From NCBI GenBank assembly GCA_051362555.1, contig CM120648.1, positions 7,746,587 through 7,810,586 on the forward strand: a DNA stretch of 64,000 bases, given 5' to 3'. How positions within the stretch are numbered: position 1 is the first letter of the stretch; every line of letters begins with the position of its first letter. The position numbers and the translations under genes were made by a program. The stretch comes from Lingula anatina. Lineage: Eukaryota > Animalia > Brachiopoda. The notes under the pieces were generated by a model, which saw only the letters and a program-made list of their open reading frames with translations, was not told the DNA's origin and ran no database searches. Positions 23,025 through 62,000 of this stretch are shown piece after piece.

Positions 23025-23312
23025 TACCCGCACGAAAACGAAGTAGATACTCCAGCGCAGTAGACTACTGCAATCATGCTGCAAACATGCTTCAAATCTG
23101 CTTCGATGTGGGAGCTAATTAACATATTTGAAACATGCTTCTATCATGCTGCTAATCTACTGCATTTATGCTCCTCCTCTGTACAACCCTATGTAATTTT
23201 TGAAGTAGAATTGCAGTAGGCTATACTGCATTTCTACTGCAAATATGCTCCACACCACTACTGCGTTAATGCTTCTTTGCTACTTCCATTCTACTGCATT
23301 TTCTTGCGGGTA
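23025..23312. mobile_element. 288-bp MITE, copy 1 (TA-flanked CCCGCA...TGCGGG termini)
   Basis: TIRs tacccgcacgaaaa / ttttcttgcgggta; a near-identical inverted copy lies at 60661-60948. Confidence 0.85.
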
Positions 23313-25300: not shown

Positions 25301-25330
25301 GTCACATTTCCTAGGTTTTTAGCGGAGTTA

Positions 25331-34300: not shown

Positions 34301-37300
34301 TTCATTAGCTACTGTTTGTTACAGTGGCGCATGCATTCACAGAGGCGGATTTATGGGGGGGGGGGGCGTCAGGATGATACTGACGCCCACCCCCTTCGAT
34401 TTCTGAAAAAAAAATCACAACAAAGATCCCCTCTTGAAATCAGAATTTTGACTTGCTGAAGCATAGTTTTAAACTGACTAAATGTCACCGTTAGCCCTTT
34501 AAAATACCAAAATACACACATCAGGGGAGAAGGGTCGGCATTGCATCCGCGGACATCCCTTTCAAATAATCCTGGATCCACCCCCGATTTATAAGCGCTA
34601 TTTATACAAACAACAGAAAAAAAGATCAGTGTATTTACCGTGTTGCTCCGGTGATGCTTGGTGCAGTTTGGCTGAAAATAGATGTATATTGCATCAATTC
34701 TTAACAAATATGTGAAAAAAACAATATACATTGATGTCAAGGAAAACGCCTATCTTATAATAAAATCTTAAACCAAATTCATACTTCTCTGGAATACAAC
34801 AATCCTCTAACATGGTTTTCGGCAAACCCCAAAAAATGGCCATGTGCACGCCACTAAAAAAGTATTCTAATGATGGAAGCTAGCTTATGAGAGAAAAAAG
34901 TCCCAATGTGTACGTTAAGAATAACAAATTAGAAACAACCAACTTTTCACACTCAGATGAGAGACCAAAATAATGCGCTCAGAAGAATTTTTAGATAAAG
35001 AAATAAATTTAATTTATTTATCATACAATTTTACACGTTTCACTGACAGTGTCAAACTGCATGTGTCTTTAGATGTTTTGCTACAATTATACCCAGTGAT
35101 AAACCAAGTAACCGAGATTCTGAAACAGCCATCTTTTCACAATCAAAACAAATGTGTTTTGAATTGAAGATCATCCTGACGCACATCCCCTTTGATTTCT
35201 GAAAAAAAATCACAATAAAGGTCCCCTCTTGAAATTAGAATTTTGACATGCTGAATCATAGTTTTAAACTGACCAAATGTCATCGTTAGCCCTTTAAAAT
35301 ACCAAAATACCCACGTCAAGGGAGAAGTGTTGACATTGCATCTGCGGACATCCCCTTCAAATAATCCTGGATCCGCCCCTGCATTCATAAGCGCTATTTA
35401 TACAAACAACATAATAAAATATCAGTGTATTTACCCTGTCGATCTGTGGTGCTTGGTGCAGTTTGGCTGAAAATAGATGTATATTGTATCAATACTTAAA
35501 AAATGTGAAAAAAATATACACATTGATGTCAAAGGAAAACGCCTATCTTATAATATAAATCTTAAACCAAATGCATTCTTCTCTGGAATACAGAACGTCT
35601 CCAACATGGTTTTTGGGAAACCCCAAAAAATCGCCACGTGTACGCCACTAAAAGTACACTAATGATGGAAGCTTATGAGAGAAAAAAGTCCCAATGTGTA
35701 CGTTAGAAATAACAAATTAGAAATCTTTTCACACTCAATCCAAAACTGTTAGTCAAAAATTAAAATGTAAAATATCTCTCTCGTCTAATATGCAAAATTT
35801 CCATCAAAATCGATTTCATTTTTTTATTTTTAACTTAAATTAATTAATTTATTTCTGTTGCTTGATATAGATTGGCTGAAAAATGTTGCACTGCGTAACA
35901 CAAATGTGTGAAAATCAACAGTAACACGTGTTTGTAAACGAATCCTACAGAAGCGCATACATTTGGAATCGCTTCTTAAACAACATTTAACAACTGTGCA
36001 AAACACCGATATTTTTAGCACTGTCGGTGTTGAATGTTATTATTGAGCCGAAATATGATAGCCTTTGCATCAATTCAAAACAAAATTGTGAGTGCATGAA
36101 TATAAATGTAGCCTGAAACAGCATGTCAACACCTATCAATTAAAATTAATAATACATAGCCTACGTTTGAATTGGGAATTGTCACAATCCACAACAAAGT
36201 GGGTTCTAGTGTTTACACATCGCATTGGCAAACGTACGTATTAAATTATTTCGACAGTAGCGCAGGCATTCATGAGCACATTTTATACTCACCTATGTAC
36301 TGAAACTGTACAACAAAAATCAAACATCTTTGGAATACCATACTACTAATTACACAAGACATTAGTTTCGCATCATACATAACGAATGCACGAATTTCTT
36401 TTATGCACAGCTTTGTACGTGAGTTTACCCTTATACATATATCATCCTCAAAACAGAAGCACCTATCACAAACACATCCTGTTTTATTAATAAAGGCAGT
36501 GCTCAGTCACCAATTTCACGTTGACTTATGTATAACGAGGAAAAATAGCAACTCGAATTCGTAAGCAAATCCGCCAGAAGCACATGTACTTATAAATGCT
36601 CATTAAACTATATGTAACAACTATGCAAATCGCCAATATATTTACCTCTCACCAATACCGGGAGTGGATGGTACCGTTGGGCTGAAATATGGACGCATGG
36701 TGCATCAGTCTGTAACGATTCTGTGAGTGCATATTAATGGAGGCCAGAAGAGCTCAGCTGTCTACTTAATTGCTGGCTTAATAATTGTAATTAAACTTTC
36801 ATATGTACTATGTTTGTCATTGGAGGCGTACTAATACGTCAGCTTAAAAGAATGAGAATTTAAAGTTACCCTATTATGCATAATGGTAGTGCTAACAATA
36901 TTCAAAATTGCAAATTACAATGAGATGATAAATATCAACATTAACTTTTGAAAATATTAATCATGTAGACACTTTAGGGTTTAGAATACAAAACTTCTTT
37001 AACTTAAAGCAAACATAGATTTATAAAAATTGGTTTCGTAATTTAAGATTTATGCAATTAATGCCCATTTACTAAGTTCACCATTATATGCGCACTAACG
37101 TGAAATAAAAATTTTTTTTGAAACTGAGAAAATATCATTTTATCTCCAACACAAGCCCACTTTGTACATAACAAATATATGCATTGATAGAGACAGGATT
37201 AAATACCAATTCGGCCAAAATACATACTGAGTGAAGAACAAAAAGCACCACGTGTTAATAAGCAATTCTAACAGTAGTGCATAAATTCAAAACCACTTTT

Positions 37301-40300
37301 TATACTAATGATCATATGAACGTGTGTAAATTTACTCTTCAGCTCATTGCATTTGACAATTGTAAAACTTTTTGTAATTATCTTTCGGACACGATGATTA
37401 ACAGCATTATCACCACCAATTTAAATTATCTACTATACGCAACATGCAAGTTTATACCATATAATTACCATACGGTTTTATGCCCGTGGGGCTTTTTAGC
37501 TTTACATTGAAAATGTCAATATTTGGATATTTGACATTCCACAAAGTTACATTACTCCCAGAAAAACAATCCAATCAAGTTAGTTTTTAAATAAAAGCCG
37601 TATTTCGGTCTTTTACAAATATCTTTTATGAAAGTTTGAAAATTATAAGATACATGGTTTTAGTTTTCCGGTCATTATTACGGCAGTGCCCCAAGTAGGA
37701 CTTTCTTCTGTTTTGGTGCAATTTTACATTTTACATTTGCATCAATTCAAAAAAAAATATGTGAGTGCGTCAATATTAATGTAGCCCGAAAGAGCACACC
37801 TGTCTACTAAAATTAAGAATACATGACCTGATTTTGAATTGGGAATTGCCACAATCCACTACAAAGTGGGTTCTTGTGTTTACACATCGTATCGTAGTTG
37901 TATGAATATCTATGAGCACGGGTGCCACAGGAACACACTTGTCTAATAATATAAAATCTACAACAAAAATCAAACATCTTTGGAATACCATACTACTGTT
38001 ACACAAGACATTGGTTTTGTATTATACATAACGAATGCAAGAAAATTTCTATTACGCACAGTCTTGTACGTGGGTTTACTTTAAACAAAAACCCTTATAC
38101 ATATACATATATCATCCTAAAACAGATGCACCCATCACAAACACATCCTGTTTTATTTATAGAGGCAGCGCTTAGTCACCAATTTCACGTAGACTTAAGT
38201 ATATTATTAAGGAGAAAAAAAAAAAACAAAAAAAAAACAGCAACTCGAGATCGTAAGCAAATCCGCCAGAAGCACATGTACTTACAAATGCTCATTATAC
38301 TTTATGTAACAACTATGCAAATCGCCAATATATTTACCTCTGAACACTACTGGAATATAATGGCACCGTTGAGCTGAAATATGGACGCATGTTGCATCAG
38401 TCTGTAAGGATTCTGTGGTTATACATTAATGGAGGACAGAAGAGCTCAGCTGTATACTTAATTACTGGCTTAATATTTGCAATTAAACTCTCATATGCAC
38501 TTCGTTTGTCATTAGAGGCGTACTAATAACATCAGTATAAAAGAATGAGAATTTAAAGTTGCCCTATTATGCATAATGATAGTGCTAACAATATTCATGA
38601 TTGCAAATTACAATGAAATAATAAATATCAACATTAACTTTTGAAAATATTAATCATGTAGACACTTTAGGGTTTAGAATACAAAACTTCTTTAACTTAA
38701 TGCAAACATAGATTTATAAAAATTGATTTCGCAATTTAAGATTTATGCAATTAATGCCCATTTACTAGGTTTACCGTTATATGCGCACTAACGTATAATA
38801 ATAATGTAATTGAAACTGAGAAAATATCATTTCATCCCCAACACAAGCCCACTTTGTACATAACAAAAAATGCATTGATAGAGACAGGATTAAATACCAA
38901 TTCGGCCAAAATACATACTGAGTGAAGAACAAAAAAGCACCACGTGTTAATAAGCAATTCTAACAGTAGTGCATAAATTCAAAACCACTTTTTATACTAA
39001 CGATCATATGAACGCGTGTAAATTTACTTTTCAGCTCATTGCATTTGACAATTATTAAACTTTTTGTAATTATCTTTCGGACACGATGATTAACAGCATT
39101 ATCACCACCAATTTAAATTACTACTAAACGCAACATGGAAGTTTATACCATATAACTACCAAACAGTTTTATGTCCAGGGTTTTTTAAGCTTTACATTGA
39201 AAATGTCAATATTTGGAAATTTGACATTCCACAAAATTACATTACTCCCAGAAAAACAATCCAATCAAATTAGTTTTTCAATAAAAGCCGTATTTCAGTC
39301 TTTAACAATAACTTTTATGTTAGTTTGAAAATTATAAGATACATGGTTTTAGTTTTACGGTCATTATTACGGCAGTGCCCCAAGCAGGACTTTCTTCTGT
39401 TTTGGTGCAATTTTACATTTTACATTTGCATCAATTCAAAACAAATATGTGAGTGCGTGAATATTAATGTAGCCCGAAAGAGCACACCTGTCCACTAAAA
39501 GTAGGAATACATGACCTGAGTTTGAATTGGGAATTTCCACAATCTACTACAAAGTGGATTCTAGTGTTAACACATCGTATTGCTAACTTACATAAACATA
39601 CAGTAGAAAAAAGTTCTAAACATTAATAACTCGATAGAGAAGCTCTTAGAAGAGACAGACAGCCATGATACCAAAAATATTTTGACCCCCTTCCTTTTTA
39701 TGTCCATTTGCATAATGATAATTGATAAGTTCAAATACAATGCACAATTCTATAAAGCGGTGGTTGACAGTTAATATTTTTAGCTTTTTATATAATTCAA
39801 CAGTAATTTTCTAAGAGTTCTCTTTCTTTTTGAGCAGTATAATTAACCATCCACACTTACTTTTGCTCTCCATCTTCGACTTGTGCAATTTTCGTACCTG
39901 AAACGTAACAACGTTTAACATATTAAAGTCCACAGAAAGAAAGTGAACCGAGAATATATCTGCACCCTAGTAGATAAATTGGTTATATTCTGCAAAGTAT
40001 ACATTAAACTTTTACATTTAACTAACATGAAGCAGCGACGTACTTTACCTTAACAGTTACGACCCAGTTTTACCATCCTTCACCAGTTGAATTTTACCAA
40101 AAGTTTAGTTTTCTATATACACGTGCGGTATTTTCAGCAGCAGGCATTTACTTTTGAAATTTTGAAATCATTGGAACTGTTTCCAAACACGTCACATCCA
40201 ATGTTTCATCTATGAAACATTACTCTTTACGTCACTTTTGGTTTGAACGCTAGAAGCATTATTTTTCACATTTTTTCAATAAACATAGCCTGAAATTATT

Positions 40301-43300: not shown

Positions 43301-46300
43301 GGATCTTCTGGAAGTTACATTTGTAATTAGTTATTTTGTTAAGGGATATCTAAAGTGAAAAATTCTGAGTGGGCACTTTTTATGACATGTTGCTTATGAA
43401 ATCCCCGAAAACCACCTAATAACACGGAATCTCACGCATCAATGCTTATACAATTAACATAGGTATTTAATATGTGCATACATGGGGTCAAAAGTGAAAT
43501 TAATAATCAAAATTAATATTAATATTATGAATTACATGCCACAATTTTTCTTCACAGATAACACTAAAAATATGTAAGTCGATGACATGTAAATGGCCAT
43601 AGTCATGAAATAAGTATATGCTGGGCTTATTTCTTTTTTAGAGCCCATGAAAAAAATGTTACTTTATCATCCCCGGCCGCATTACTTTTTCTGCTCACAT
43701 AAAAAAAAAATTATAATGTAAATTTCCCCCCATCAAATGTGCACCTCATGCACAAAAACAGACTCTCCCTGTACTAAGAGTGCCTCGCACTGCAATTTAT
43801 GTTACTACTAGCTTTGCTCATGGCAGGTTCCATGTTTTAGTGTATGTAATGACGGTCCGGAGGGCATCGTTCAATGTGTTTTTGTATGAGCCAAAAATGC
43901 CCTACTGAATCACTTCTTGTAGGTGACATTGACCCCATTTCCAGATATTAGATCGATCTACTTTAGATCGACCTAACTCCCTGGGGGTTCACGCTAAATA
44001 GCTGTCAGCCGAGCGGACACGAAAGTAAATAACCCCCTTACAACTTGTAATAGGCGGGACGGACATTTAAGCCGGATTAACTGACAGTAATCTACTAAGA
44101 CTCCCCGCGGGGATAGATCAATCTAAAAGCTCTGGGAATACAGCCAATGATGGTAAACTATTATTTTTATGGGGCCTTTATACAGAATTATCACCGATAG
44201 GGGAGATGGGTGCACATGTATCAGCCAACAGAGATAAAACCTTTTGATTAAAATGTAATTATGTCACTGGATTATTAATATTAGTTTTGGGCCTGGGGAT
44301 TGGATGACACGCCTCTTTTTCTGTCAGAGTATGAAGAATACTAGGCCTACACAAGAAGTTACAACTTCTTGGCCTACACGATTCATATCTCAACTCTTCT
44401 AATAATAACTGATATGCCTATCATATCCAAGTAAAGGATTTCTTTAAACATGGATTCCCCAGGAATTCCCCAGTGTGAGCTATTGTAACAGGTAATTTTA
44501 TTGGTCAATGCACAGGCTTAACATAGCTCAACACATAAGAGAAATCCTACAGAGTTGAGGAAATTCCTATTATTTGAGAAAATTATTGGCTTAGGAAATT
44601 CTAAAGGCACTTTGTGCACACCACTTAAGGGGTTTCCTCAGCTAAGAATTTTCTTATCAAGATAAGGATATTTTGTGCATACGGGGCCAGATGCTTTAAA
44701 GTCACTTCCCAATGTTTTGTCTTTGTTCAAGTGGATGCACCCCCACCTAGCCCATCCCATAAGTCACCATATGGGGTGTAGTGGCTACTATAGTGTAGGC
44801 GAGCTGTAAGTGATAAAGAAACCTCAAAGAAGGACAATAAATCCAAACGCTGGAGCGGAACTTGCAGAATTTTGTATAGAATGTCTTTGGGGACCATGAC
44901 CACTCATTTATGTCTCAGCATGATAATGCTTGTCCACGTTCAGCTAATGCAACAGTGTGGTGGTTATATGCTAGCCAGTTCCAGATCCCTAAATGGCAAG
45001 CTCAATATCTAGATCAGAACCTCATTCAGGATGTGTAGAATTTCACAGAAATTGGGTAACTTAGGATATATCATGCAAACAAAAATTACCCCACACTACC
45101 TTGTGCCGTATAAAGAACGCCAACACTCCGCAAACGTTACAGAACTTTGACTCTATACACAGGCTTCTCATGTTCATTCTCTAATCCAGAGAGTACTGTG
45201 CTAAATACTTAAAAGTGTCTTTGACTTTTTACTATGTTTACATTGTTCAATGCTTGTACAATCAATTAAATTTTATAAAAAAACTGAACAAAAAACATTG
45301 GCTTAGAGCACGATTCTCTTTACTGTATTTAACATATTGCATTATATCTGAGACTTTTTTAGTTAGGGGAGTATACAGTGAAACAGACATTAACAACTTA
45401 AATTTCGGTACCAAAGAAACAGAATGGGAGAGCTACCAGTTTCACAACGACAACAGTGAAGTTTCTTGCCATTTCGGTTCTCCCTCAAATGTGATCAGAA
45501 TGTTTCGGAAGCTGTCGGAATGCCATGAGAATATTCAGAATGCAGTCATAGTGCCATTCGATAATTTTCCACTTTGAATGCACTTCGAAAGTTTTTAACA
45601 TGAGCAAAACATTCGGGCCGGCCACAAGAATGGGTAGAAATATTTGGAATGCACTCGGAATGTTTAGAATGCTCATCGAATATCCAGGAACGCACAAAGA
45701 ACTGTCTTTCCGACGGCATTCTTGCTCCTTCCGCCTCTAGTGTGAGGGAGGTATAACAAATGAACTGCATGTATTTGTTAAGTAAAAAAACAAAGAGGCT
45801 AACTGTCATTCATCAAACTTACATTAAAAAGGCAGGCATTCAAATGCTTTTTAAGTTGGCTTGGGCAACTGTAAGGGCATGGAACTTCACTGGAAAATGT
45901 TTGTATTAACATATTTAAAATTATTAGAAAATAACTAGTATGACTCTAGAGAATATGTTGTCTATTCCTTGCAGGATTTTTCGTAGCCGTCTTTTTAATA
46001 GATATGGTAAATACAAACCTTGTGCGTTTTCTTGCCACCGGTCATTGCCTAAAAGAAAGAGTAAATTCGTGAGCATTTTATTGAACATTTATTGAAGGGA
46101 AAACAAACCATCCAACAGTGTGCATAACGTGGAGCAGCACTCTTTGTAATTATGTTTAATAATTGAAAACTTGCTGGGACACTTTCCAATTCAGTGTATG
46201 TGCACATGGTTAATGCTTCTATCTTAGATATAGAAATGTTGAAAATGAAGACAGTCTCCCAGCCGAACAGTAAACCACGTTTTTTATAAAACAGATAAGG

Positions 46301-49300
46301 GTGATTCCACAAAAAAATCAAATTAATGCATATATTTTGAAATACAAACATAAATAGGACATGCTGACATTTTTTCAGCTAAGCGAAAATGTGAACTTTG
46401 ATATAGCAACTTGTATAATCAACACGAAGTATACACATATTTAAAGTTCATAAATAAGTCATAAGTGAAGACAAATGACACTTATTCAGTTGAACGTACT
46501 GCACCCACCTTCTGTTTGGGGGTTTGTTTTCGGTAAATACCGTTGAACGGAAACTAAAGAGATGGTAGCATTTAGTAGTTTAAAGTGCTTAACTTTTATT
46601 AGCCTTGTCTTGAACACAATTTAATGTTTTTTAGACATTAAACACATGTCGGGTGATCTAGTTTCATTGGTATCATGTACAGGTAAAAGCTCATTTAGTT
46701 TACAGCGTGAGTAAACTCACCTTGTGCTGCTGTTAGTGCGTTGTCTGTATAAAAATAGAAATGTAAAAATACAAAGATTCTCGAAAACTTTTACTTTATA
46801 CTTTATATATACAAAGTTTACAATTAAACCGATATATACAAGGAAGTTACAAAACCCGTACGAGTTAAACACGCTATAGAATAAAATATCATATAATTGA
46901 ATAGATTTGATGAGAGAATGTTTTTCTTCAGCTAAATAAGTACTGAATCCGATGTGTTATTGACTTGTGTGTTATTGTCTCTATGCCGTATATATAGTGA
47001 CTCCCTATACAAAAAGAAAAGGTGTAAACTACGGTATATTAGCAAATGTATATACTACATTGTATAATTCCATTGGATAAAACAGCAAATATGTTCGACT
47101 TCAGTATAGCTCTGTTCTGCAGTTGGGTAGCACTCACCTTTTTCTCTTAATGCATTCTCGTGACTCTCTGTATAAAATAGAAATGTAAAAATATGAAGTA
47201 CCTCAAAACTATACATACATAACAGTATTTATGTATTACTTTATACACACAAAATTCACAATAAAACTGGCATATACAAGGAACTGCAAAAGCAACACAT
47301 ATATACAGTGATATATACAAATATCAAAAATATACAAAAGAAGCATAATATTCGCAAGAGTTAAAGGTGTTAAAAAGAAAATAGTATACATGTATATTAA
47401 TGGATCTGATGTGAGAATGCGTTTCTGAGCTCATATGTACATACTGCATTACACGGAAAAAACAGTAAATATCAGTACGTCTCTGTTGTGCAATTTGGAG
47501 ACACTCACCTTGTTCTGCTGTAGGTGCGTTGTCTGTATAAAAATAGAAATGTAAAAATACAAAGATCCCCAAAAAATTTTACTTTATACTTTATACATAC
47601 AAAGTTTACAATTAAACAGATATATACAAGGATGTATGCAGTGATACTCAAAAAATACAAGTTACAAAACCCGTACAAGTTAAACACACTGTAGAATAAA
47701 ATAGCATACATTTGAATAGATTCGATGAGAGAATGTTTTTCTTCAGCTAAATAACTACTGATTCCGACGTGTTATTGACTTGTGTTTCATTGTCTATATA
47801 CATAGTGACTCTCTATACAAAAAGAAAAGGTGTAAACTACGGTATATTAACAAATGTATATACTACATTGTATAATGCCATTGGATAAAACAGCAAATAC
47901 GTTTGACTTCAGTATAGCTCTGCTCTACAGTTGGGTAGCACTCACCTTTTTCTCTTATTGCATTCTCGTGACTCTCTGTATAAAATAGAAATGTAAAAAT
48001 ATGAAGTACCTCAAAACTATACATTCATAACAGTATTTATGTATTACTTTATACACACAAAATTCACAATAAAACTGGCATATACAAGGAACTGCAAAAG
48101 CAACACATATATACAGTGATATATACAAATATCAAAAATATACAAAAGAAGCATAATATTCGCAAGAGTTAAAGGTGTTAAAAAGAAAATAGTATACATG
48201 TATATTAATGGATCTGATGTGAGAATGCGTTTCTGAGCTCATATGTACATACTGCATTACACGGAAAAAACAGTAAATATCAGTACGTCTCTGTTGTGCA
48301 ATTTGGAGACACTCACCTTGTTCTGCTGTAGGTGCGTTGTCTGTATAAAAATAGAAATGTAAAAATACAAAGATCCCCAAAAAATTTTACTTTATACTTT
48401 ATACATACAAAGTTTACAATTAAACAGATATATACAAGGATGTATGCAGTGATACTCAAAAAATACAAGTTACAAAACCCGTACAAGTTAAACACACTGT
48501 AGAATAAAATAGCATACATTTGAATAGATACGATGAGAGAATGTGTTTCTTCAGCTAAATAATTACTGATTCCGATGTGTTATTGACTTGTGTTTTATTG
48601 TCTCTCTATATAGTGACTCCCTATACAAAAAGAAAAGGTGTAAACTACGGTATATTAACAAATGTATATACTACATTGTATAATGCCATTGGATAAAACA
48701 GCAAATACGTTTGACTTCAGTATAGCTCTGCTCTACAGTTGGGTAGCACTCACCTTTTTCTCTTATTGCATTCTCGTGACTCTCTGTATAAAATAGAAAT
48801 GTAAAAATATGAAGTACCTCAAAACTATACATTCATAACAGTATTTATGTATTACTTTATACACACAAAATTCACAATAAAACTGGCATATACAAGGAAC
48901 TGCAAAAGCAACACATATATACAGTGATATATACAAATATCAAAAATATACAAAAGAAGCATAATATTCGCAAGAGTTAAAGGTGTTAAAAAGAAAATAG
49001 TATACATGTATATTAATGGATCTGATGTGAGAATGCGTTTCTGAGCTCATATGTACATACTGCATTACACGGAAAAAACAGTAAATATCAGTACGTCTCT
49101 GTTGTGCAATTTGGAGACACTCACCTTGTTCTGCTGTAGGTGCGTTGTCTGTATAAAAATAGAAATGTAAAAATACAAAGATCCCCAAAAAATTTTACTT
49201 TATACTTTATACATACAAAGTTTACAATTAAACAGATATATACAAGGATGTATGCAGTGATACTAAAAAAATACAAGTTACAAAACCCGTACAAGTTAAA

Positions 49301-52300
49301 CACACTGTAGAATAAAATAGCATACATTTGAATAGATACGATGAGAGAATGTGTTTCTTCAGCTAAATAATTACTGATTCCGATGTGTTATTGACTTGTG
49401 TTTTATTGTCTCTCTATATAGTGACTCCCTATACAAAAAGAAAAGGTGTAAACTACGGTATATTAACAAATGTATATACTACATTGTATAATGCCATTGG
49501 ATAAAACAGCAAATACGTTTGACTTCAGTATAGCTCTGCTCTACAGTTGGGTAGCACTCACCTTTTTCTCTTATTGCATTCTCGTGACTCTCTGTATAAA
49601 ATAGAAATGTAAAAATATGAAGTACCTCAAAACTATACATTCATAACAGTATTTATGTATTACTTTATACACACAAAATTCACAATAAAACTGGCATATA
49701 CAAGGAACTGCAAAAGCAACACATATATACAGTGATATATACAAATATCAAAAATATACAAAAGAAGCATAATATTCGCAAGAGTTAAAGGTGTTAAAAA
49801 GAAAATAGTATACATGTATATTAATGGATCTGATGTGAGAATGCGTTTCTGAGCTCATATGTACATACTGCATTACACGGAAAAAACAGTAAATATCAGT
49901 ACGTCTCTGTTGTGCAATTTGGAGACACTCACCTTGTTCTGCTGTAGGTGCGTTGTCTGTATAAAAATAGAAATGTAAAAATACAAAGATCCCCAAAAAA
50001 TTTTACTTTATACTTTATACATACAAAGTTTACAATTAAACAGATATATACAAGGATGTATGCAGTGATACTCAAAAAATACAAGTTACAAAACCCGTAC
50101 AAGTTAAACACACTGTAGAATAAAATAGCATACATTTGAATAGATACGATGAGAGAATGTGTTTCTTCAGCTAAATAATTACTGATTCCGATGTGTTATT
50201 GACTTGTGTTTTATTGTCTCTCTATATAGTGACTCTCTATACAAAAAGAAAAGGTGTAAACTACGGTATATTAAAAATTTATATACTACAATCGTATATT
50301 GCCATTGGATAAAACAGCAAATATGTTCGACTTCAGTATGGCTCTGTTCTGCAGTTGGGAAGAACTCACCTCGTTCTACGTTTAATGCGTTCAAGTACTT
50401 CTCTATATAAAAAAAAAGAAATGTAAAAATACGAAGTACCTCAAAACTATACATACATAACAGTATTTATGTATTACTTTATACATATAAAATTTACAAA
50501 AAACTTGCATATACAAGGAACTGCAAATGCAACAGATATATATACAGTGATATATACATATATCAAAAATATACAAAAGAAGCATAATATTCGCAAGAGT
50601 TAAAGGTGTTAAAAAGAAAATAGTATACATGTATATTAATGGATCTGATGTGGGAATCCGTTTCTACAGTCAAATGACTAGCACGATACACAAAATTTAA
50701 TACACACGATCATTCGTAAAGATGTTGGATACCCACCTTTAGGCATGAATTTAAATGGAAATGTGTATTTTTCTGGAAAAGAATACATTTCCGTTAATAT
50801 ATAAAGCACTGAGAACACTTTACGCCTTTAACGCATTTCAATGCACAGCTGTTTCTGATGTCATGCAGGACTGCATAACATTGATACATATTTCTCTCAC
50901 TGATATGCTGAAAGATTTTTATGATTATTTAAAACCTGCATTAATAAAATATGGAGTCGACAAATAAAGGTGTTCACTTTAGCTTAGTTATAATTTTTTC
51001 GATCAAAAAAAAGACTGAATAAAATGAAATTGAAAAAAAAACTAATTATGTTGTTGTTATTTGAGAGAGGAAAAGAAAGTAAATTGAATACCATTAAAAC
51101 AGCAAGACTCTACCTGTACGTCATAAGGACGACCGCACACGAACCAATGCAAAGTTCGTTGTTGCATAGAGCAGTGGAAATATACAATTACAAATATACT
51201 GCATAAGATTCAACAATGTGTATTTGTGTATGTTTCTGCGCCAACTTTGTTTAATTTAATTAGAGTTCATAAACATTTACTTACTGTAACGCCGACAGTA
51301 GTAAATCCATGGGATGCACCACTCAACAAAACCTAAAAAAGACAACATATACAATAGACTAAAAAGTACTTTTATAGCCGATTGTTTGCTTTAATAATTA
51401 ACGGTTATTTAAGTACATGTAAATTACAAGTATGAAAGGTTGCGATTAGGAAAATTCATTACTAAACCATTTACAAAATTAAAATTGGGTAATATTTTTT
51501 AATCTTTCGGGTAATAGTACTGGGACATTTGCAACCATTTTTGCTGGATATAATGCAAATGCATTTTCGAATGAAGTTCCACGTGCTATTTCACAATGAA
51601 AACTTACAGACAACCAAACCTATAGCAATCCCAATACCAATCCAATGCCCAATTTTGTTGCCAGTAGGTTCGCTGAAAAGCAAAAAGTAATTTTATGTCT
51701 CCTCATTAATAGCATATTCACAAAATTGCATTAATATTGTCATTTTCATTACATTTCATTACAGTGAAATAAATTAAACTAAACTAAACTAAACTTAAAC
51801 ATTAAGCCAGCCAAAGGATAAGTAAATGACAAACACAGATATATAGTGTTCGAAATTTGGCCGGTAGCGGCCGCTTTTATTGAAAGGTCCCTCTATTAAA
51901 GGATGGTGATAGATATTATATAGCATTAAATAATGTTAATTAGTTAAAAATTACGTAATGTTATCTCTTAAAAATAAATATCAAAACAAATAGTGCAAAT
52001 GTTTTCATTTGTGGGGTTGCAAAGAGGCCGAAAAAATTTTCCAGCGAGGCGCAACTTGTATAATCAAAGTTGAATGCTATGCTCTCCGCAAAGAACTTAA
52101 GCAAAGTGAGGCCGAGTAGCAGTGTTTACTGAATAAATGCGGCAGTGCATGCCTAAAAGAGAGTCCCGGTTTTAGTGCAGCAAATTTCAGCAAAAGTGAC
52201 GCTTCAAAGCTGCCGGGTCTCCCCGATGGACAGATAAATTTCAAGGAGCTTAATACAGTGAATTCCAGATGCCAATACCTTGTTTACGCTCCTAACCTGG

Positions 52301-55300
52301 TAATACCAGATTCCGTTTCCCCCCGCTAATGAAAGTTCGCAACGGCCCATGAAAACAATTAAGTTAACCGTCGCCATAAAACATCGTTTGTCTACGCCAA
52401 ACTTCCCTTTGTGATCAAATGTGATAACAAAGTGTATCGGTATTTGATACATCCGATAAGAAATAAATGCTACGATTACACCAACTCTCACAAATAATCC
52501 GGCATATAACAGTTAAGGAAATATACATGGTTAAGACAGAATGAGCCAAGATATCGAATATTCATCACCATTTTTTTTGTTTGTTCCTAATTTATAATAA
52601 TAAAATATTTATGGGCTCTGTATACAATGAATATTTTCTTGTACAAAAATAATACTAATTTCATTTCGTGTCATATCCGTTAGCAAAGGTCCCATGTCCA
52701 GTATGTTACAGTCATATGCATTTTGGTACCAAAACGCCAAAGACGGGTTCAAAGTTTTCGTATAATTTACCATTAAAATTATTGTAAAACCTGGTCGAAG
52801 AACTTAAACACCGTTTTTCTTTGAATTGCTGTTACCTTTGGTTTTATCTCTATGTGCATAAAATGACATAAAATAATAATGGATTTTTACTTTCAACGCC
52901 AGTAACTCTGCACAGAGCTAGATCACAATTTGCAGATACCGTATTGTAATTTATACATCTTCAACAAGTATGAATTTCCATGATGATCAAATGGACAGGT
53001 ACATGTACATGTTATGATAAGTCTTTCAGAGCGACACGGCTAACTCTGTTGGGGGTGTGAATTCAGCGTAACAAAACCTTTCAAACAGGTTAGGGTCTCG
53101 GTACGTTAAAAAGGTCTATAGTCTGAAACAAAGATCTCCCCGTTTCCTTATGAGAAATACTGATTTTAAGAATTCATTGAATATAACATCCTTTAATGCA
53201 CGCCTCCCCTTTTATGCTTATTCACCACCCCATCTGCTTTTGCACATAAGGTGACCAATTGTTGTTAATATTTGTAGCCAAAGTTCGCTGGTTTGTAGTA
53301 TGGCGTGAGAAATAGATCGGCCTCTGACGTAACTCCGTAACTAAATTAGATATTGTCATGAAAATCGGCATGGTTGAGGAACTTGTGTGTAAACGATACT
53401 TTGTACTGGTGCCAGCATTTGGATTTAATTCTTTTGTGTAGAAGGTATCCCCCCTCTTATCAAGACATTCCATTGAACAAAGGCGTTATGTTTCGTTTCT
53501 TTGCTGATAAAATTGAAAGTAAACCTTTCAAAAGAATGTCCTGGCACCAGATTGTAGTAACTGATGCTCTGAATAAAATGGTGTTTAAACGTTTTTTGTT
53601 GTTGGGATAACTGTTAAGAATCAATGTTATCAATTTGCACCCAAAACGCTTCTCAAATTCACACCGATGTATTTCTAATGCGATTGTATTTTCACATAAC
53701 AAGACACCAATTTCCACATTATCCAAGCAGACAAAGAACATTTTAAGTATCGATCTCCATTGACAGGACAAAATAACAATAAAGATCCCGATGGATTTTC
53801 CTTTTATCGTATTCTTTCGTTCAAAACGGTCAATACCCTATGGTAGACTGACATTTTTTTTCATAACATGTCAGGAAATTTTATTTTTTGTAGCAAATTC
53901 ATATGTTGCAATTGAAGACATGACATAATTGCTGCCATTGTGTGTGAATGTCTGACATTTAATCTGTATACCTATTATATGACGTTGATGTGCAACTTTT
54001 CCGCGGTTTGCTTCGGGCTGTGACCCTTGCACGACCCCGTAACGACAACGGAAATTATGTAAATCCCACTGTTTTGGCTGTTTTCGGCGTTTGTCGGAAA
54101 AGTTGAAATATTAATAAACTATATACCTACCACGCACACGTACAATTAGGGTTAGGAAGCGGCTTGCAGTGTTTGTCTTCGTCGAAATGCTCAACATATT
54201 GGCCATTCTCTGAAGCAAAAAAATGTCAAAATAACCCAAGTGTATGTAAGTTATCCTTAGCTATTAATTATCATTATCCATTCGAACATATTATGAGAAA
54301 TCAAACAAGCAAACAAACAAACAAACAAATAAATAAATAAATAAATGTTGTGAACGACTGACGCATGTGTAAATCTTTCCCTCTGTCTAAGACTAGTAGT
54401 AAGTGATATTTCCAACACTTGAATGTGCATAAAGTTGTTACACAGACAGACGATAATCAAATAAAAACGTTTGATAAATAAATAACATGCTTACTGTCTT
54501 TTATGTGTGGTTCAGTTCCTTCTGGACATTGCTTGCAACCACAAGCTTGGCCTTTCTCCCAACATCGTTTCGGTCTTATTGGTGCAAAACGATTGCACTC
54601 ATCACACCAGCATTTGTTATTCTAAATAATAATAATAAAAAGAAGAAGAAGAAGAATGTACAATCTGAAACTTATCATATCCAATAGACTTAACAATGTA
54701 AACTACAAATACAAATTACAAAAAATGAAAAAAAATGACTGAAAATAAAATGTTGAAAACTAAAAAGAACATAATTATTTTACGGTATAATATAGGCAAG
54801 AATAAGGCGGGCGAATTTGAATAATTTGATGAAAGATGTGATGACCTTCGCCATTAAAGCAAATAATGCAAATAAAATTAGAAAGTCCAATATTTAATGT
54901 GAGGCAATTTCACGCGAGGAATTTTACGTGTGCAAATGGTCGTTCAACCATTCATATTCAATACCGTGTATACCCCATCTTCTGGGGCACCGACCTCTCC
55001 CTTCCCCAGAAAACAGTACATTGAACAAAACAAGCTACACCAAACAGTTATCCTGCATATTGTAGTAAGATTATCCTCGTTTTCTTTTTTGTCCACTATT
55101 TTATGTGTTTCCGGCTTCGTTCTGCTTTTTAATCATTTAGCAACTCTATCTTTCCTTAATAACAAAGGATTGACCTGCCAGTGTATATTTGAGGCAATTG
55201 AGATTTAAACTTCAAAATATGTTCAAAGCTTTTTTATTTTAAATAAATATGACAACCTAAAAGAACGAAACTAGAATCACAAGACTTAATCAATCAATCA

Positions 55301-56653
55301 TAAGATCTGCCTCAGAATATACATTCCTCTTTTGGGACCAGGGCTAATTTCAGAGCAATCTAAATTTATTGAATCCATCTATAAAAAGAGCTCAAAGGAT
55401 CATATACCCAGCTTTTTTGTCATCAGTATATGCCCTACAGATAAGGGAATACTCTATAAGCGACTTTATTTAAGTGAAAATTCAGAACAGGGATAAGCCA
55501 TTCCTTGCATAAAAGGCTACAGCCATTCTGCGTATAACAAGCAATCAATGTAAAGTCCCTACAGTTAAAACTGATTCATTTAAGAAACATTTCTTAAACT
55601 ACTGTATCTTTAATTTCAAGTCCCTTTAACTTTTTAAAGTGAAACATATTAGTTTTAATATACAAGGCCTGACCTAAGTTTATTTTAAAATTGCAATAGT
55701 CAAAACTACCTGTAAACGTTTTTTAAAAGAACTTATATAAATTATGTTTTATATTTTAACTCCCTCATTAGAGTATTAATTAAGAACATATTTAGTTTAA
55801 AGTCTTTTTAAAGTTAATTAAGTTTGATTTTCTTTTAACATTGTACAACTAAACCCTCGAAATGCAATTCAACTGAATAAAATATTATTGTTTTTATATC
55901 ATTTTTAAAGTATAGTTATGTTAGAAAATTGAGCATGTGATATATCACAAACAAAAAATTCTGAAGGACAAGTTGAATTTGTGAGTCTTAACTTAAAACA
56001 CTAGTCAGCACGATGTGCTCAATACACTGCAATTACCTGTGTCTCATTTCCAGCTCGAATGATATATTGTCCTTTATCGGAGCACGTTCGCAGTTTCTCA
56101 CATTTCGACCCAAGAGAAAATTCTCCTGAAAAGGAACACATTTTGCTACAAAAAGGAGATTTAAGATGTGATAGTTGTGACACACTAACACTCTTGCAGA
56201 AGTCACGGCTTGTCTTTAATTTGATAAACCTTACAATGACAGGCCAATGCACGTACCCCTTCACATACAAAAACGAATATGTTGACATCAAGGATCTAAT
56301 TGATAGGTTTTAATGTTCGATGAATTGGGATAACTTGGCAGGATATGTAGACATAGAATATAAGTACAAATATGACTGTTGGACATTTTCTAGCGTGGAT
56401 TTCATACAGACTTTTAGGTTTCGAAAGTGTGTAAAAATATTATATGAAGATCAGTTGTTCCCATGCGTCATCCATAGTCTGCCTATTAAATCAATATCAT
56501 CAGTTTGTCAAATAATTAAAGGACGATGATTTGTAGAAAAATGAAAACGATTTACCTGCACAACAAGTGTCGCTACATTGCCGTGGAAATCTAACCCCAG
56601 CAATGACAGCGATCAGCACCTTTCAATGCAAAAAAAAAAAAACAATATAAAGA

Positions 56654-56693
<40 letters not shown>

Positions 56694-57691
56694 ACATATA
56701 TGTAATTAGAACATACAATGGCAGCAACCACACTAATAAAAATAATAGCATATAAGTTGAAGAGAGAGCCCTGTTTATTTAGCAAAATTGACGTATGTGT
56801 AAACACCCCGACTGTTTGTCTGTAAGACCTTTCATCTGTGCACTACTTTAATACTACTATATTACTTTTGCACATATCATAGAATAAAGAAAGCTCTACA
56901 GAACTTACCGTATAGAAATATAGAAAGAGCATACCGTTAACATGCAAGCAGTCACTTTCCACGCGCGGTGATTCATTTATGTACATGTACACACACTGGA
57001 CAATAGAAGTTTCACCCCTACTGAACCAATACTTAAATAACTGTGGAAAGATATGCTCCTAGTATAATTTTATTAACATCAAATTTCACAAAAGAAACGG
57101 TTCTAACTGAACAAATCAACTGTATCGATATTTTGACATTGCTTATATTCCGCCTCTTCAGGTTAATAACTTTGATTACTCTGATGCAGGGGGTGACACT
57201 TCTATTGTCCAGTGTGTGTACATACACATCATGAGTTTCAAAGAAGTGCTACACAGTTTGCATCAGGCATCAGAGGGTAGCTGAGGATTTATGTTATAAC
57301 GAAGGTGAGCAGGCGTATCAACAGTAAACAGTTGTATTGATTAATATTTCAGTTTAGAATGAAGATATGTAAAACAAAAGGAATAAAACTGCGACAGATT
57401 GACCTAATTTTTTGAGAAACAAAGAAGCGGCTAATGACATGCAAAAAGACACAGAATATCCACTACAGAAGTTGATCCGCAGACTAACAGATCCTCGGAT
57501 CAAAATGTCTTACCCACTTAAAAGCTTACCCATCAATCCGTGCAGGAAATATTCCCAGTGTCTTTTGGGGGATCAGACGACAAGCTTCCAAGTGGGCCCG
57601 CAATGTCTGATCTAAAGATATGTTTGTCTGCGGATCAACATATGGCCATATACACACTTACCGCTAAGAGGACATTCCGATAAGTGGCCAT
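25331..57691 (-). CDS. TNF receptor superfamily-like type I membrane protein, no death domain, micro-exon-encoded repetitive cytoplasmic tail (up to ~33 coding exons, ~448 aa)
   Basis: Minus-strand exons: 57691-57662 (MATYRNVLLA), 56619-56556, 56125-56037, 54621-54495, 54209-54131 (Cys-rich ectodomain), 51672-51608 and 51332-51285 (TM), 50772-50737, 50402-50370, nine 24/30-nt exons in 49956-46721, 46553-46509, 46048-46019, 39897-39861, 38373-38338, 36681-36646, nine 33-nt exons in 34671-27193, terminal 25385-25331 (GPGAVGGGDTRDDSKNSK*). All GT-AG with compatible phases. The 3' half is less certain than the ectodomain and TM. Confidence 0.7.
26313..26760 (-). pseudogene. Tc1-like DDE transposase remnant
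   Basis: 'SPDGNPIENMWDELGRAI...NLDELRDALQDEWTRIP...LVHSMPRRL' plus frameshifted upstream 'NLNAARCRDVLQQNLKPF...FRLQHYN' match the Tc1 C-terminal half. Confidence 0.85.
26750..36120. repeat. Complex modular tandem repeat (MITE-containing, ~4.1-kb higher-order period) carrying 33-nt minus-strand micro-exons
   Basis: The core GTCCCCTCTTGAAATT occurs about 11 times. Near-identical ORFs recur at 27118/31178 and 27607/31701. A block with acceptor, 33-nt exon and gtaaat donor recurs 9 times, plus one 32-nt copy. Confidence 0.88.
36060..39585. repeat. ~1.7-kb tandem duplication (two copies plus a partial third), each full copy with a 36-nt minus-strand micro-exon
   Basis: 36060-37735 aligns by eye with 37735-39425, and the start recurs at 39425-39585. 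Exons 38373-38338 and 36681-36646 have catatttcag acceptors and AG|gtaaat donors. Confidence 0.85.
40365..40702. mobile_element. Non-autonomous TTAA-flanked TIR element (Kolobok-like), copy 2
   Basis: ttaa-AGGGATAATAACTGTTCG ... CGAACAGTTATTATCCCT-ttaa; internal sequence is a diverged reverse complement of 11512-11857. Confidence 0.75.
41100..41830 (+). pseudogene. Highly degenerate Tc1-like transposase remnant
   Basis: Frameshifted fragments resembling RRP...KHRRL, VFF.IEVRFHLY, IRVYRHP.E, MWSG...KT and SKSPYLNHIDN occur in Tc1 order. Confidence 0.6.
42907..44688 (+). mobile_element. Non-autonomous PIF/Harbinger element with HARBI1-like N-terminal remnant
   Basis: TIRs GGCCCCGTATGTACAAAACATC (42907) and GATATTTTGTGCATACGGGGCC (44688) with subterminal TAAG-rich repeats. 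Internal 43150-43310 encodes frameshifted 'RPRIFRDRKN...YPDHEIYQRFCFD..GILFITDLLE', typical of Harbinger nuclease N-termini. Confidence 0.75.
46715..50660 (-). repeat. 808-bp tandem array (~4.8 units), each unit carrying two phase-1 micro-exons of the TNFR-like gene
   Basis: ORF-track duplicates recur every 808 bp (47324/48132/48940/49748). 24-nt exons at 49956-49933, 49148-49125, 48340-48317, 47532-47509, 46744-46721. 30-nt exons at 49591-49562, 48783-48754, 47975-47946, 47167-47138. Each has a polypyrimidine-acag acceptor and a G|gtgagt donor. Confidence 0.9.
51285..51672 (-). CDS. TNFR-like transmembrane exons
   Basis: Exons 51672-51608 and 51332-51285 give EPTGNKIGHWIGIGIAIGLVVCFVEWCIPWIYYCRRY(KK): a hydrophobic helix followed by basic stop-transfer residues; both donors are gtaagt. 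Confidence 0.8.
54131..57691 (-). CDS. TNFR-like signal peptide and cysteine-rich ectodomain exons
   Basis: MATYRNVLLAVLIAVIAGVRFPRQCSDTCCAGEFSLGSKCEKLRTCSDKGQYIIRAGNETQNNKCWCDECNRF...CWEKGQACGCKQCPEGTEP...HCKPLP. The 'C..LRTC...G..II.AG..T.N..C.C' and 'CKQCPEG' segments are typical of TNFR cysteine-rich domains; start context aaaATGG. Confidence 0.8.
56655..56692. repeat. (ATT)n microsatellite in TNFR intron 1
   Basis: Directly visible trinucleotide run. Confidence 0.85.
57471..57639. repeat. Inverted repeat / MITE-like element about 20 nt inside TNFR intron 1
   Basis: GTTGATCCGCAGACTAACAGATC ... GATATGTTTGTCTGCGGATCAAC. Confidence 0.6.
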
Positions 57692-58372: not shown

Positions 58373-59068
58373 AGAAGATCCAAGGATCTTCTGTTCTGAC
58401 TTAGGACTCTCTAACTACCCCGATACCCAGTACTTTTCACACCGCGTATATATACTTACAGTCTGTAGGGCGACTTTTCAAATGTATGATGGAAATATCG
58501 AGACGCTTCCCAATTCATGTAGACTTCGTCACTTCCTTAGTTACCTAAGGTGAATCAATAGCCCCACAAACAAACAGGATTCCACTAAACAATTATTAAT
58601 ACTAGTCGACAACAATGACTACTGCATATATTGCATATACGTCACGTGTTGCCTATTCACGACAATGATTGGATTTGTTTTTCAGTATTTGTGCTGAGGA
58701 AGAAAGGGGGCCATATGTTATTGTACATTCATTTCTAATGCATTTAGCTTTGATTGTGTAGGTCTTGATTGAACAGGTGACTGCATGGGGTCACGCTTTA
58801 GGGTCTGATACAAAGCGCTGCTTATATTTCCACTGCTGACGACCTAGTTTGAATACTCAAAAGAAAGTGACCTGGTAAAACCCAAGCGTATCGCATCGAA
58901 GAGAAATAAAAAAAAAAAAACAGGTGCATTTAAATGATGAAGACACGGCGCGGCTTATGTTCGCTTTCGAAAAGAGCTCTTGTGACAAAGTTCCAAATGC
59001 GTATCTCTGTAAAAGAAATGTAACTTGAAAGCAGCATTTGACGATAACGAAGCCCTTAAAAATTCCCG

Positions 59069-62000
59069 ATGATGAATGTTCGTGGTTATGATCACCGACT
59101 TCGACCTCAGCACCTGCGTGTGTACGATGAGCCGCCGCTGTTACCTTCTTCGCAATCCTCGGACCAGTCGAGTACGACTGACGGCTTGTACGCGTCCATC
59201 CGACCATCCAACATCACAACTGTAGACCTTGAGTCATTTTCCGAGCCCAGTGAAAATGACAGTGGTCACAACGACAAAATTCAGCTTGGACGACGATGGC
59301 GCTGTTACCTCATGGCGATCTTCGCCATGTGTTGTTTACAGATGGTAGCCATAGTGGTTCTGGGTGCTGCTATTCATTTTCATCAACATGATGGCGGCAA
59401 ACTGTCCAGGGATACGGCGGCTCTTTTGAACCAACCAATAGCCATGTCCCAAATCGATGTTTCAGAGGATGGGCATGTTGGACCGGCTTATCTGTGTGTT
59501 CCAGGCCTGGATATCAAATACCACAGTGAGAACTGCACCATACTTAAAATATTGCATCGGGTAATTGCGACAGTTTATATTTCTTCGGTAGACTCTAGTG
59601 TGTTTAACTGGTAAATAATCAATTAAAATCACATTTTAGATGCATGGAACATTAAGAGCTTGAAAACTACCGGTACATGTTGCAATTATAAGACGTATAC
59701 ATTTATTTAGCGACTCAGTTACTTGTACTTGCAGTTTCCCTATTATACTGTGTCAAAAACGTTTAAATTTCATTTTGGGGGTTGATTTAAATTACATTGC
59801 CTATAGTTACGTTCGTCCCAATAAGGTATACCCAGGAGACCGTTGAGCCTTTACAGTATACATAATCTTACTACTGTTTAAAATCCCAAAGATACCAGTA
59901 TTCAGCAGTATTCAGCTGCTCTTATAATGCCAGAAGCAATCCTTGTTGATAATGTTGGTAATATAACGCTAACTTATTTTTTTATGTAGCATTTTTGTTA
60001 TTTTCATTACAATTAAATGGTGATAAACCAGAATTATTTAATCTTTGGTTAAAAAGAAAGAGGGGGTAGAGTATCACATATCGGCGTGCAGGTGACGCAG
60101 TGCTTTTTAAAAATATGGCGGGGTATTGTTTAGTGAATCAGCATGATGTTGACTTTTTATCTATTTATTTGCAGCTCCTGGAAAAAGTTGACAAAAATCT
60201 TTATGCAGCTATGAACGACATGAATAAAACCGCCAATAATGTGATGAATGGTGCGTGCAATGCTTCCTCACACCATAGAGGGCTTACAATGTTGGGAAAA
60301 CAACCTAAAGCATGGCCTATGCATTTTACACATGAACCTCTCTTCAATTCATAGTATCACATCGGATTCATTACTTTTTCAACACTTAAAAGTCATTTTT
60401 ATAAGTTACTTATCTAAAACCATGCTCTGGGGATCCATGACGTGTGGATTGTTAGACACAGATGAAATACTAGATTACCCCTCCCCATCCTTCAAAGAAA
60501 AAAGAGGAAGACAGAAAGAGATTAACGCCCAGCAGAAGAATAAAAATCTGGTGTTATATTCTCTTTATTCTTTGTCTAGGAAAATAAGTTTACTTTCGTC
60601 CAGAAATATGGCCCCGTTAAATATATCTTCAATTGTTTACGCATGGCTTCTTGGCTTGTCTACCCGCACGAAAATGCAGTAGTATCGAAGTAGCAAAGAA
60701 GCATTAACGCAGTAGTGGTGTGGAGCATATTTGCAGTAGAAATGCAGCATAGCCTACTGCAATTCTACTTCAAAATTTACATAGGGTTGTACAGAGGAGG
60801 AGCATTAATGCAGTAGATTAGCAGCATGATAGAAGCATGTTTCAAATATGCTAATTAGCTCCCTACTCGAAGCAGATTTGAAGCATGTTTGCAGTATGAT
60901 TGCAGTAGTCTACTGCGCTGGAGTATCTACTGCGTTTTCTTGCGGGTACTCTTTAAGTAAGTAAAGTTAAGTAAATAACAACATTTGCATATATGCTTGT
61001 TTTACATAGGACTTCTTATGATAAATTAAGTTAACCGTTGTCGATATCTCTTTTTACAGGTCTCAACAGAAATATGTCCAAGCTGGCTGTAAACAGTCGT
61101 CTGCAGGACAGCTCGCTGTACAATATCACGGAGACAGTTGCTTCCTTAAATCGGAAAATGAATGGTAAATATGTTTGTACGTCTAAACAGGTACTCTATT
61201 TTTATACTCCCCTACACCTTTTTCCTTCTTATTTCTATTTCTCTGCAGGTATGATGTCCCAGAACAAAATTGATGCCAGTTTTGACCCTTGGTTTCATAG
61301 ACAGATCGAAAATGGTGCTTTGTCTTTATACAATAACTTTCGCTTTCTGTAGAAAATGTCAACATTGAGATAAGTTCCCTTTTTAACTTTCACAACAGAT
61401 TATATTAAATCGGTCCTGAGTGATAACTGTTAAGGTCAACCCCGTGGTTATCTTATAATGGTACCTATATACTTGTGGAGGTACTGTAAACACCTTCTTC
61501 AAATCTGAGTCACCATGATTGAATATATAATCTTAAACGATATTATGCTTGAAAATAATTTATGTGCTTACAGTGTTGGGAAAATAACCTAAACCATGGT
61601 CTTAGAATTTGACACCTGAACCACTCTTCTATTCATATTATCACATCGTTACTTTTTCAACACTTAAAGGTCATTTTTATAAGTTACTTATCTAAAACCA
61701 TGCTCTGGGGACCCATGACGTATGGATTGTCAAACACAGATGAAATGCCAGAATACTCCCCCCCCCCCTCCAAAAAAAAAAAAAAAAGAAGACAGAAAGA
61801 GATAAACGCCCAGAAGAAGAAGAATAGAGCAAGTTGGCCCCCCTGACGTCAACTGCGTTTTTTGTCAAATTGTGAGCCATCTGGCATTATATTTGAAAAA
61901 ATAATGACATTGCATACGTAGCTTAGTTCATGGGGCTTACTTTAAAATCGGTTTTGTTTCTCTAACTCATTCCTAGTTGGCTCTACAAGGCCAAAAGTGT

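Follow-up and report, generated by a model that had tools for sequence, protein, structure and literature searches.

A tandem array of short phase-1 exons as the probable source of a modular cytoplasmic tail in a TNFR-like gene of Lingula anatina

The question raised by this locus is what a tandem repeat with the appearance of satellite DNA encodes, if anything, when it lies behind the transmembrane segment of a receptor gene. The window analysed was a stretch of 64,000 nucleotides of the brachiopod Lingula anatina (GenBank assembly GCA_051362555.1, contig CM120648.1, positions 7,746,587 to 7,810,586 of the forward strand), the minus strand of which carries, at 46715-50665, a unit of about 808 bp repeated in tandem 4.9 times, hereafter array 1. 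In the original prediction, made from the sequence alone, this apparent satellite had been taken for an array of symmetric phase-1 micro-exons, and this was borne out by the ten exons found, by their strong splice signals and by a 24/30-nt pair being spliced in seven RNA reads from another copy of the gene. In the explanation preferred here, to which a probability of roughly 0.7 was assigned, the short phase-1 exons of this 808-bp array code for the cytoplasmic tail of a TNFR-like protein, a tail that would be modular and of low complexity, with a number of units that shifts by unequal crossing-over and differs between gene copies.

As to the array itself, it holds five micro-exons of 24 nt, four of 30 nt and a single one of 33 nt, and these ten were spaced by 808 bp in six out of eight cases, with spacings of 788 and 811 bp at the edges. 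All ten were flanked by a T-rich acceptor ending in TAYAG and by an AG/GTGAGT donor, were of phase 1/1, were entered in phase 1 in the spliced model and stood in frame behind the transmembrane segment. A strict splice-site pattern, composed after the exons had been seen, was scanned on both strands of the 64 kb and retrieved precisely these ten exons and nothing else, while in a Markov simulation of one unit a single match was obtained in 5 out of 5000 cases and two matches in 0 out of 5000. Tandem Repeats Finder, with its period limit of 500, did not detect the array. The peptide DNAPTAEQ was found four times, as had been proposed, whereas ESHENAIREK appeared three times instead of four, the fourth 30-nt copy reading ESHENALREK. 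The array, its exons and the two candidate exons that follow are given below.

46715..50665, minus strand: array 1, 4.9 units of about 808 bp; 47813-50235 comprises three near-identical periods
50370..50402, minus strand: 33-nt micro-exon EKYLNALNVER, a diverged 5′ copy of the 30-nt exon (85% identity with flanks; no RNA depth)
49933..49956, minus strand: 24-nt micro-exon DNAPTAEQ (splice signals, frame; no RNA depth)
49562..49591, minus strand: 30-nt micro-exon ESHENAIREK (splice signals, frame)
49125..49148, minus strand: 24-nt micro-exon (splice signals, frame)
48754..48783, minus strand: 30-nt micro-exon (splice signals, frame)
48317..48340, minus strand: 24-nt micro-exon (splice signals, frame)
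47946..47975, minus strand: 30-nt micro-exon (splice signals, frame)
47509..47532, minus strand: 24-nt micro-exon DNAPTAEQ (splice signals, frame; no reads)
47138..47167, minus strand: 30-nt micro-exon ESHENALREK (precisely these 30 bases covered by seven reads)
46721..46744, minus strand: 24-nt micro-exon DNALTAAQ (joint from 47138 in seven reads)
46509..46553, minus strand: 45-nt candidate exon, phase 1/1 (splice signals, open frame; no reads)
46019..46048, minus strand: 30-nt candidate exon, phase 1/1 (splice signals, open frame; no reads)

In every unit a third, decayed version of the 30-nt micro-exon is present as well (at 50236, 49428, 48620, 47812 and 47004, minus strand), in which the acceptor is intact and the strong donor is gone.

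Upstream of array 1, the phases of eight exons (from 56932 to 50737) agreed, and the joined exons, the last of which ends in phase 1, gave a signal peptide, a 16-cysteine region, a transmembrane helix and, next to the membrane, a short basic stretch. Moreover, phases agreed across the 31 exons of the full model, with the frame remaining open until the stop.

56909..56932, minus strand: predicted first coding exon, start of the signal peptide (frame, phase; weakest match to P0002, 1/6)
56556..56619, minus strand: exon 2, end of the signal peptide and first cysteines (15/21 identical to P0002)
56037..56125, minus strand: exon 3, cysteine-rich ectodomain (27/30 identical to P0002; three X7 reads at 56074)
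54495..54621, minus strand: exon 4, cysteine-rich ectodomain (phmmer match to P0002, E 1.2e-13; X7 depth)
54131..54209, minus strand: exon 5, end of the cysteine-rich region (16/19 identical to P0002, with 8 gap columns)
51608..51672, minus strand: exon 6, stalk and start of the transmembrane helix (P0002 alignment, hydropathy)
51285..51332, minus strand: exon 7, end of the transmembrane helix, 48 nt, phase 1/1 (P0002 alignment, hydropathy, phase)
50737..50772, minus strand: 36-nt juxtamembrane exon, phase 1/1 (P0002 alignment; X7 depth sums to 36 nt, one read)

The protein P0002 in this list is the Lingula anatina protein XP_013413435.1 (LOC106175827), found by phmmer with exon 4 as one of three matches; the other two (P0003 and P0004) were repetitive spurious matches and were dropped. 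A total of 140 out of 186 aligned residues were identical between P0002 and the spliced model across all eight upstream exons, exon 1 being weak, and the gene therefore has at least one paralogue. Furthermore, P0002 runs on into the intron after the 36-nt exon, with 15 out of 19 residues identical to the translated intron of the window. This intron (50737-50680, minus strand) stays open for about 18 codons that match the C-terminus of P0002, a possible read-through isoform as in the chicken BG genes.

The hydropathy of the spliced model peaked twice, reaching 2.04 at the N-terminus and 2.21 over residues 138-156, as expected of a type I topology, and the AlphaFold model of P0002, obtained without an alignment, placed a helix at residues 131-160; its pLDDT was below 50 over residues 17-131, which left the ectodomain unusable. 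In the Atlas, the best clusters for P0002 were TNFR clusters (score of 0.90), the ten best matches with an assigned family all sharing that family or clan, and the neighbours included GITR, 4-1BB and CD40-like clusters. A TNFR-type cysteine-rich domain (CRD) is described as having six cysteines and three disulfides (PMC4979521). The ectodomain of the model has 16 cysteines, in which a four-cysteine CRD-like pattern and CxxCxxG matched, while the full six-cysteine pattern did not. No death domain was evident in the tail, which is rich in Q, A, E and P. In addition, an NCBIfam search of single exons gave nothing useful, no Ig family match appeared in the Pfam or Atlas results for the exons and P0002, a word-index search with exon 4 gave no match, a search with P0002 returned only itself, and a metagenome pattern scan gave 0 matches.

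The splicing of the micro-exons was followed in raw RNA runs, nine of which stand under the same species label; X1, X3, X4, X5, X7, X8 and X9 were mapped, and X2 and X6 were left out. The mapped regions were 49860-56640 (X1, X3, X4 and X7) and 45960-47560 (X5, X7, X8 and X9), with joints listed from at least three reads, 25-30% of X7-X9 read and a very low depth, using a mapping tool that may miss 24-nt pieces or 30-nt pieces carrying a mismatch. In the region 45960-47560, a joint from 47138 to 46744, which removes a predicted GT..AG intron of 393 nt on the minus strand, was found in five X9 reads (four starts) and two X8 reads; a second joint, from 46721 back to 47167, occurred in the same reads of X9 and X8. 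The depth of these seven reads fell exactly on 47138-47167 and 46720-46750. In this region X7 had one intronic read and X5 had none. In mRNA sense, the reads ran through a variant 30-nt unit (visible as CHKNALR), DNALTAAQ, ESHENALREK, DNALTAAQ and an exon starting with GNARKDV, so that the spliced order was 30-24-30-24. Both outer flanks of the reads were absent from the window at up to three mismatches in 19 bases, and the transcripts therefore come from another allele or paralogue; for the same reason, back-splicing as the origin of the joint that goes back was rejected. The micro-exon family is thus spliced in tandem (30 nt and 24 nt) in a sister copy of the gene, and the unit set differs between gene copies. 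In the longest of five reads, the six letters beyond the variant unit matched the end of the 36-nt exon at 5 out of 6 positions, a weak match, and it is weakly suggested that the gene copy of the reads has a two-unit array, compared with five units in the window.

In the region 49860-56640, no joint was listed in X1, X3, X4 or X7 and most mapped reads were intronic repeat matches, with clear exon depth in X7 only, where the bins over the 36-nt exon summed to 36 nt, from one read. The X7 reads on exon 3 (56037-56125) showed at least nine differences each, which is consistent with a diverged allele or paralogue.

The differences among the units of array 1 were then used to consider its history. 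The 24-nt and 30-nt sub-units with their flanks were 61% identical, compared with a shuffle maximum of 51%, and on this evidence they appear to be old duplicates of each other; the length differences were all multiples of 3. Units 2 and 3 differed at one out of 808 sites, located in a T-run, unit 4 at 9-10 sites, and units 1 and 5 at 30-50 sites. Moreover, six alleles were common to the two outer units (1 and 5) and set them apart from the inner three. The homogenised block, 47813-50235, comprised exactly three periods with one difference inside. Because of these shared outer alleles and this three-period block, a stepwise unequal crossing-over from two to three and then to five units would fit, in agreement with the pattern originally proposed. 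Between outer and inner units, the exons differed at 11 out of 107 sites and the introns at 51 out of 1302 (Fisher test, P = 0.005), an excess driven by the first unit (P = 0.006) and not by the last (P = 0.29), while the splice signals differed at 2 out of 101 sites. The exon changes mostly altered the residue. Since the exons diverge faster than the introns, no conserved peptide motif is present, and the earlier description of the units as a repeated receptor motif was overstated; array 1 preserves its splicing and its reading frame.

A second array, absent from the original prediction, was found further downstream in the gene model, in which the following candidate features are included.

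39861..39897, minus strand: 37-nt candidate exon, phase 1 to 2 (splice signals, frame)
27193..35466, minus strand: array 2, with nine candidate micro-exons of 33 nt and, at 35466-35435, one of 32 nt; spacing 626-1413 bp
25330..25385, minus strand: candidate last coding exon (4 residues before the stop if read in phase 1, 17 if read in phase 2)

Array 2 is made of irregular duplications, with the AG and GTAAAT signals intact in all ten exons. The 37-nt and 32-nt exons jointly bring back phase 1, and no stop interrupts the 419 residues of the full model, 257 of which form the tail. The 33-nt exon is open in all three frames, so that its openness is no evidence. Modest support came from the variable sites, four out of five of which are third positions of codons when read in the phase-1 frame (AKLHQAPPEQQ); no difference in variability was found between exons (5 out of 33) and introns (64 out of 309). 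On one reading, the 32-nt exon became symmetric by gaining one base and could then be amplified in a new frame; on the other, the 32-nt copy would be a damaged 33-nt copy and the frame would be phase 2. Array 2 probably lengthens this tail, bringing it to about 257 residues. If it belongs to the gene, the internal exons of at most 37 nt number 23 (exon 1 being left out) and account for 705 out of 1257 coding nucleotides, 21 of the 23 being symmetric.

At 25385-25270 (minus strand), phase 1 reads DPVQ, a stop and E, one base change short of a canonical PxQEE TRAF site, while phase 2 gives the 17-residue end; what may be a mariner-like remnant follows. Between the two arrays lies a tandem duplication of about 1.8 kb (36064-39580, 87.5% identity), and a further tiny exon may be present at 36305-36293, where there is a 13-nt AG..GT piece.

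The mechanism proposed for array 1 is that one ancestral small exon would have been duplicated into the 30/24 pair, which could be amplified without cost because both exons keep the frame. The exons would mostly be included together, so that tail length would depend mainly on the DNA; skipping or intron read-through might add a second layer of variation. The resulting tail is probably a disordered modular polymer, its length being governed mainly by DNA copy number. A coiled coil was not supported for it, as the hydrophobic moment was not above that of shuffles. The leading idea on function can be offered only tentatively: the receptor shows no recognisable death domain, and its tail may serve as a spacer of adjustable length and as a platform for docking. 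An AxQE sequence, resembling a TRAF site, arises at each 24-to-30 junction, both in the version of the window and in that of the reads; four AxQE matches to a relaxed TRAF consensus were counted, and the last junction of array 2 gave one PxExxD match to the TRAF6 consensus. With one AxQE per 24-to-30 junction, the number of units would set adaptor valency. It seems doubtful that a brachiopod TNFR family tunes its signalling by two independently amplified micro-exon cassettes, in which each unit adds a new junction docking site, copy number varies from allele to allele and the second cassette came from a one-base gain in the 32-nt exon.

Several results weigh against the interpretation of array 1 as the modular tail of a TNFR-like protein. 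As regards the receptor, the Pfam and PDB sequence searches with single exons and P0002 did not recognise a TNFR, the Atlas feature counts for P0002 (156-166) fell short of the 170 that family members typically reach, and no structure TM score reached 0.4. The gene was called TNFR-like because of the Atlas TNFR clusters, a call tempered by the Pfam and PDB negatives and the low TM scores and hence likely but not proven; together with the in-frame spliced model and the P0002 alignment, it upholds the original assignment of the micro-exons to a TNFR-like receptor tail. As regards expression, five of the seven mapped runs had no joint, the seven supporting reads belong to another gene copy, the 33-nt exon and the first 24-nt exon (49956) had zero depth in X1, X3, X4 and X7, and no reads covered the DNAPTAEQ copy at 47532 or the exons at 46553 and 46048 in X5, X7, X8 and X9. 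The RefSeq model of P0002 ends inside the intron after the 36-nt exon, before the array, with no micro-exon tail annotated. Furthermore, units 2 and 3 differ by one base in a T-run, so that the exact copy number is provisional. Finally, as regards docking, AxQE appeared in 32% of unit shuffles and misses the strict consensus Px(Q/E)E of TRAF sites (PMC6125299, PMC11117997). Helical amphipathicity was not significant either (P-values of 0.45 and 0.12).

The strongest competing explanation is that the exons are real and spliced and that their number is nearly neutral, frame-preserving units drifting in a disordered tail without functional effect. This was judged somewhat short of an even chance, and such drift is about as likely as a tuned function. 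It accords with exons that are no more conserved than the introns, with the lack of a strict motif or a significant helical pattern and with the persistence of the decayed third exon copy in each unit; it is harder to reconcile with the excess of mostly amino acid-changing exon substitutions over intron ones in array 1, which hints at selection for change, and with two separate arrays having arisen within one gene. Variation might also come mainly from alternative skipping of micro-exons within one allele, as in the schistosome micro-exon genes (MEGs), since all exons are symmetric and the introns short, so that any subset could be removed in frame. This appears unlikely in view of the strong and identical splice sites and of the seven informative reads, which show consecutive inclusion with no skipping joint listed at the threshold of three reads and at low depth. 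Of the two sources of tail variation originally foreseen, copy number was borne out to the extent that the unit set differs between gene copies; for skipping, no joint was listed.

Two further explanations concern the copy in the window. It may be silent or short-tailed, by read-through after the 36-nt exon or as a decaying duplicate, with only a paralogue using the micro-exons. The end of P0002 within the intron agrees with this, as do the lack of any read assignable to the window's own tail exons in the mapped regions, a divergence of the exons from the paralogue about as large as that of the translated intron, and an insertion of eight residues, absent from P0002, that brings in extra cysteines. 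However, the 31 exons carry no stop or frameshift, every unit has retained its splice sites, the one read that lies on the 36-nt exon stops short of the intron, and the end of P0002, which may be a genuine read-through, may equally be an annotation that failed to place micro-exons; this explanation was held to be rather improbable. Still less probable is an over-expansion of the assembly, the three near-identical periods standing for a true locus of three units, for which the single difference within 47813-50235 speaks. Assemblers usually collapse tandem repeats, which counts against it, and a collapse would still leave six distinct micro-exons, so that the architecture stands.

Next to the receptor gene, in head-to-head orientation, is a gene for a TNF ligand.

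59069..63176, plus strand: TNF ligand gene (Pfam TNF, E 1.1e-9, at 62727-63173)

Its best match was a Lingula protein, 42% identical, and its exon 1 was inferred from the open reading frame 59060-59614. The ligand and receptor start codons are about 2.1 kb apart, and the two may be a cognate pair with a shared promoter. On the plus strand, a multi-exon gene at 17800-21500 has calcium-binding EGF repeats (Pfam) and, by eye, sushi-like and neurexin-IV-like pieces. A 290-bp dispersed element occurs in inverted orientation (96%) at 23025-23315 and 60658-60948, on either side of the receptor gene region, and further transposon remnants were found at 26316-26621 (DDE_3, weak) and 13521-13973.

In literature listings that covered few subscription papers, no earlier account of a micro-exon array was found for any TNFR or for Lingula. 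Micro-exon arrays resemble satellite DNA, and the public paralogue model ends exactly where the array would start, which points to a blind spot. The role of invertebrate TNFRs without death domains is described as an open question (PMC4979521), and this gene offers a handle on what they do; that the tail tunes signalling we only infer. The gene resembles such TNFRs in its signal peptide, cysteine-rich ectodomain, single transmembrane helix, tail with no recognisable folded domain and TNF ligand neighbour, and departs from them in its atypical cysteine spacing (Pfam TNFR_c6 not matched), its tail of about 24 small exons and the lack of a strict Px(Q/E)E site. Tails changed by splicing and intron retention, with tyrosine motifs, are also described for the invertebrate receptor families fester and FcoR of Botryllus (PMC11507803); unlike the present gene, no tandem micro-exon arrays are described for them in the available portion of that source.

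Schistosome MEGs, to which the array had originally been likened, have host-facing products that vary by alternative splicing and are apparently restricted to flatworms, and in VAL-6 a micro-exon part is joined to an ordinary gene (PMC4350168). Very small symmetric exons, a signal peptide and rapid protein change are shared with them, whereas here the exons would be intracellular, behind the transmembrane helix, and are tandem duplicates of each other, the nearest relatives being brachiopod proteins. Nearer than these, and the closest working analogue, is the tail of chicken BG, a type I membrane protein of the butyrophilin family, of which the present gene is not a member. The BG tail is made from many tiny frame-preserving exons of 21 nt, sometimes 18 or 24, their number ranging from 13 to 36 and differing from gene to gene and from haplotype to haplotype; tails are truncated where an intron is read through, and there is evidence of selection on tail variation (PMC4046983, PMC5938342). 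The array is a variant of this known receptor-tail design, new for a TNFR-like gene; the design, a receptor tail from duplicated frame-preserving micro-exons, would have arisen independently in a lophotrochozoan and apparently twice in one gene. As in BG, the tail consists of many small in-frame exons, the set of which differs between gene copies. In contrast to the Ig-V ectodomain and 21-nt heptad coiled coil of BG, the present gene combines a cysteine-rich TNFR-like ectodomain with exons of 24, 30 and 33 nt with no coiled-coil signal, an 18-residue two-exon unit whose inner copies contain prolines, and a second array unrelated to the first within the same gene.

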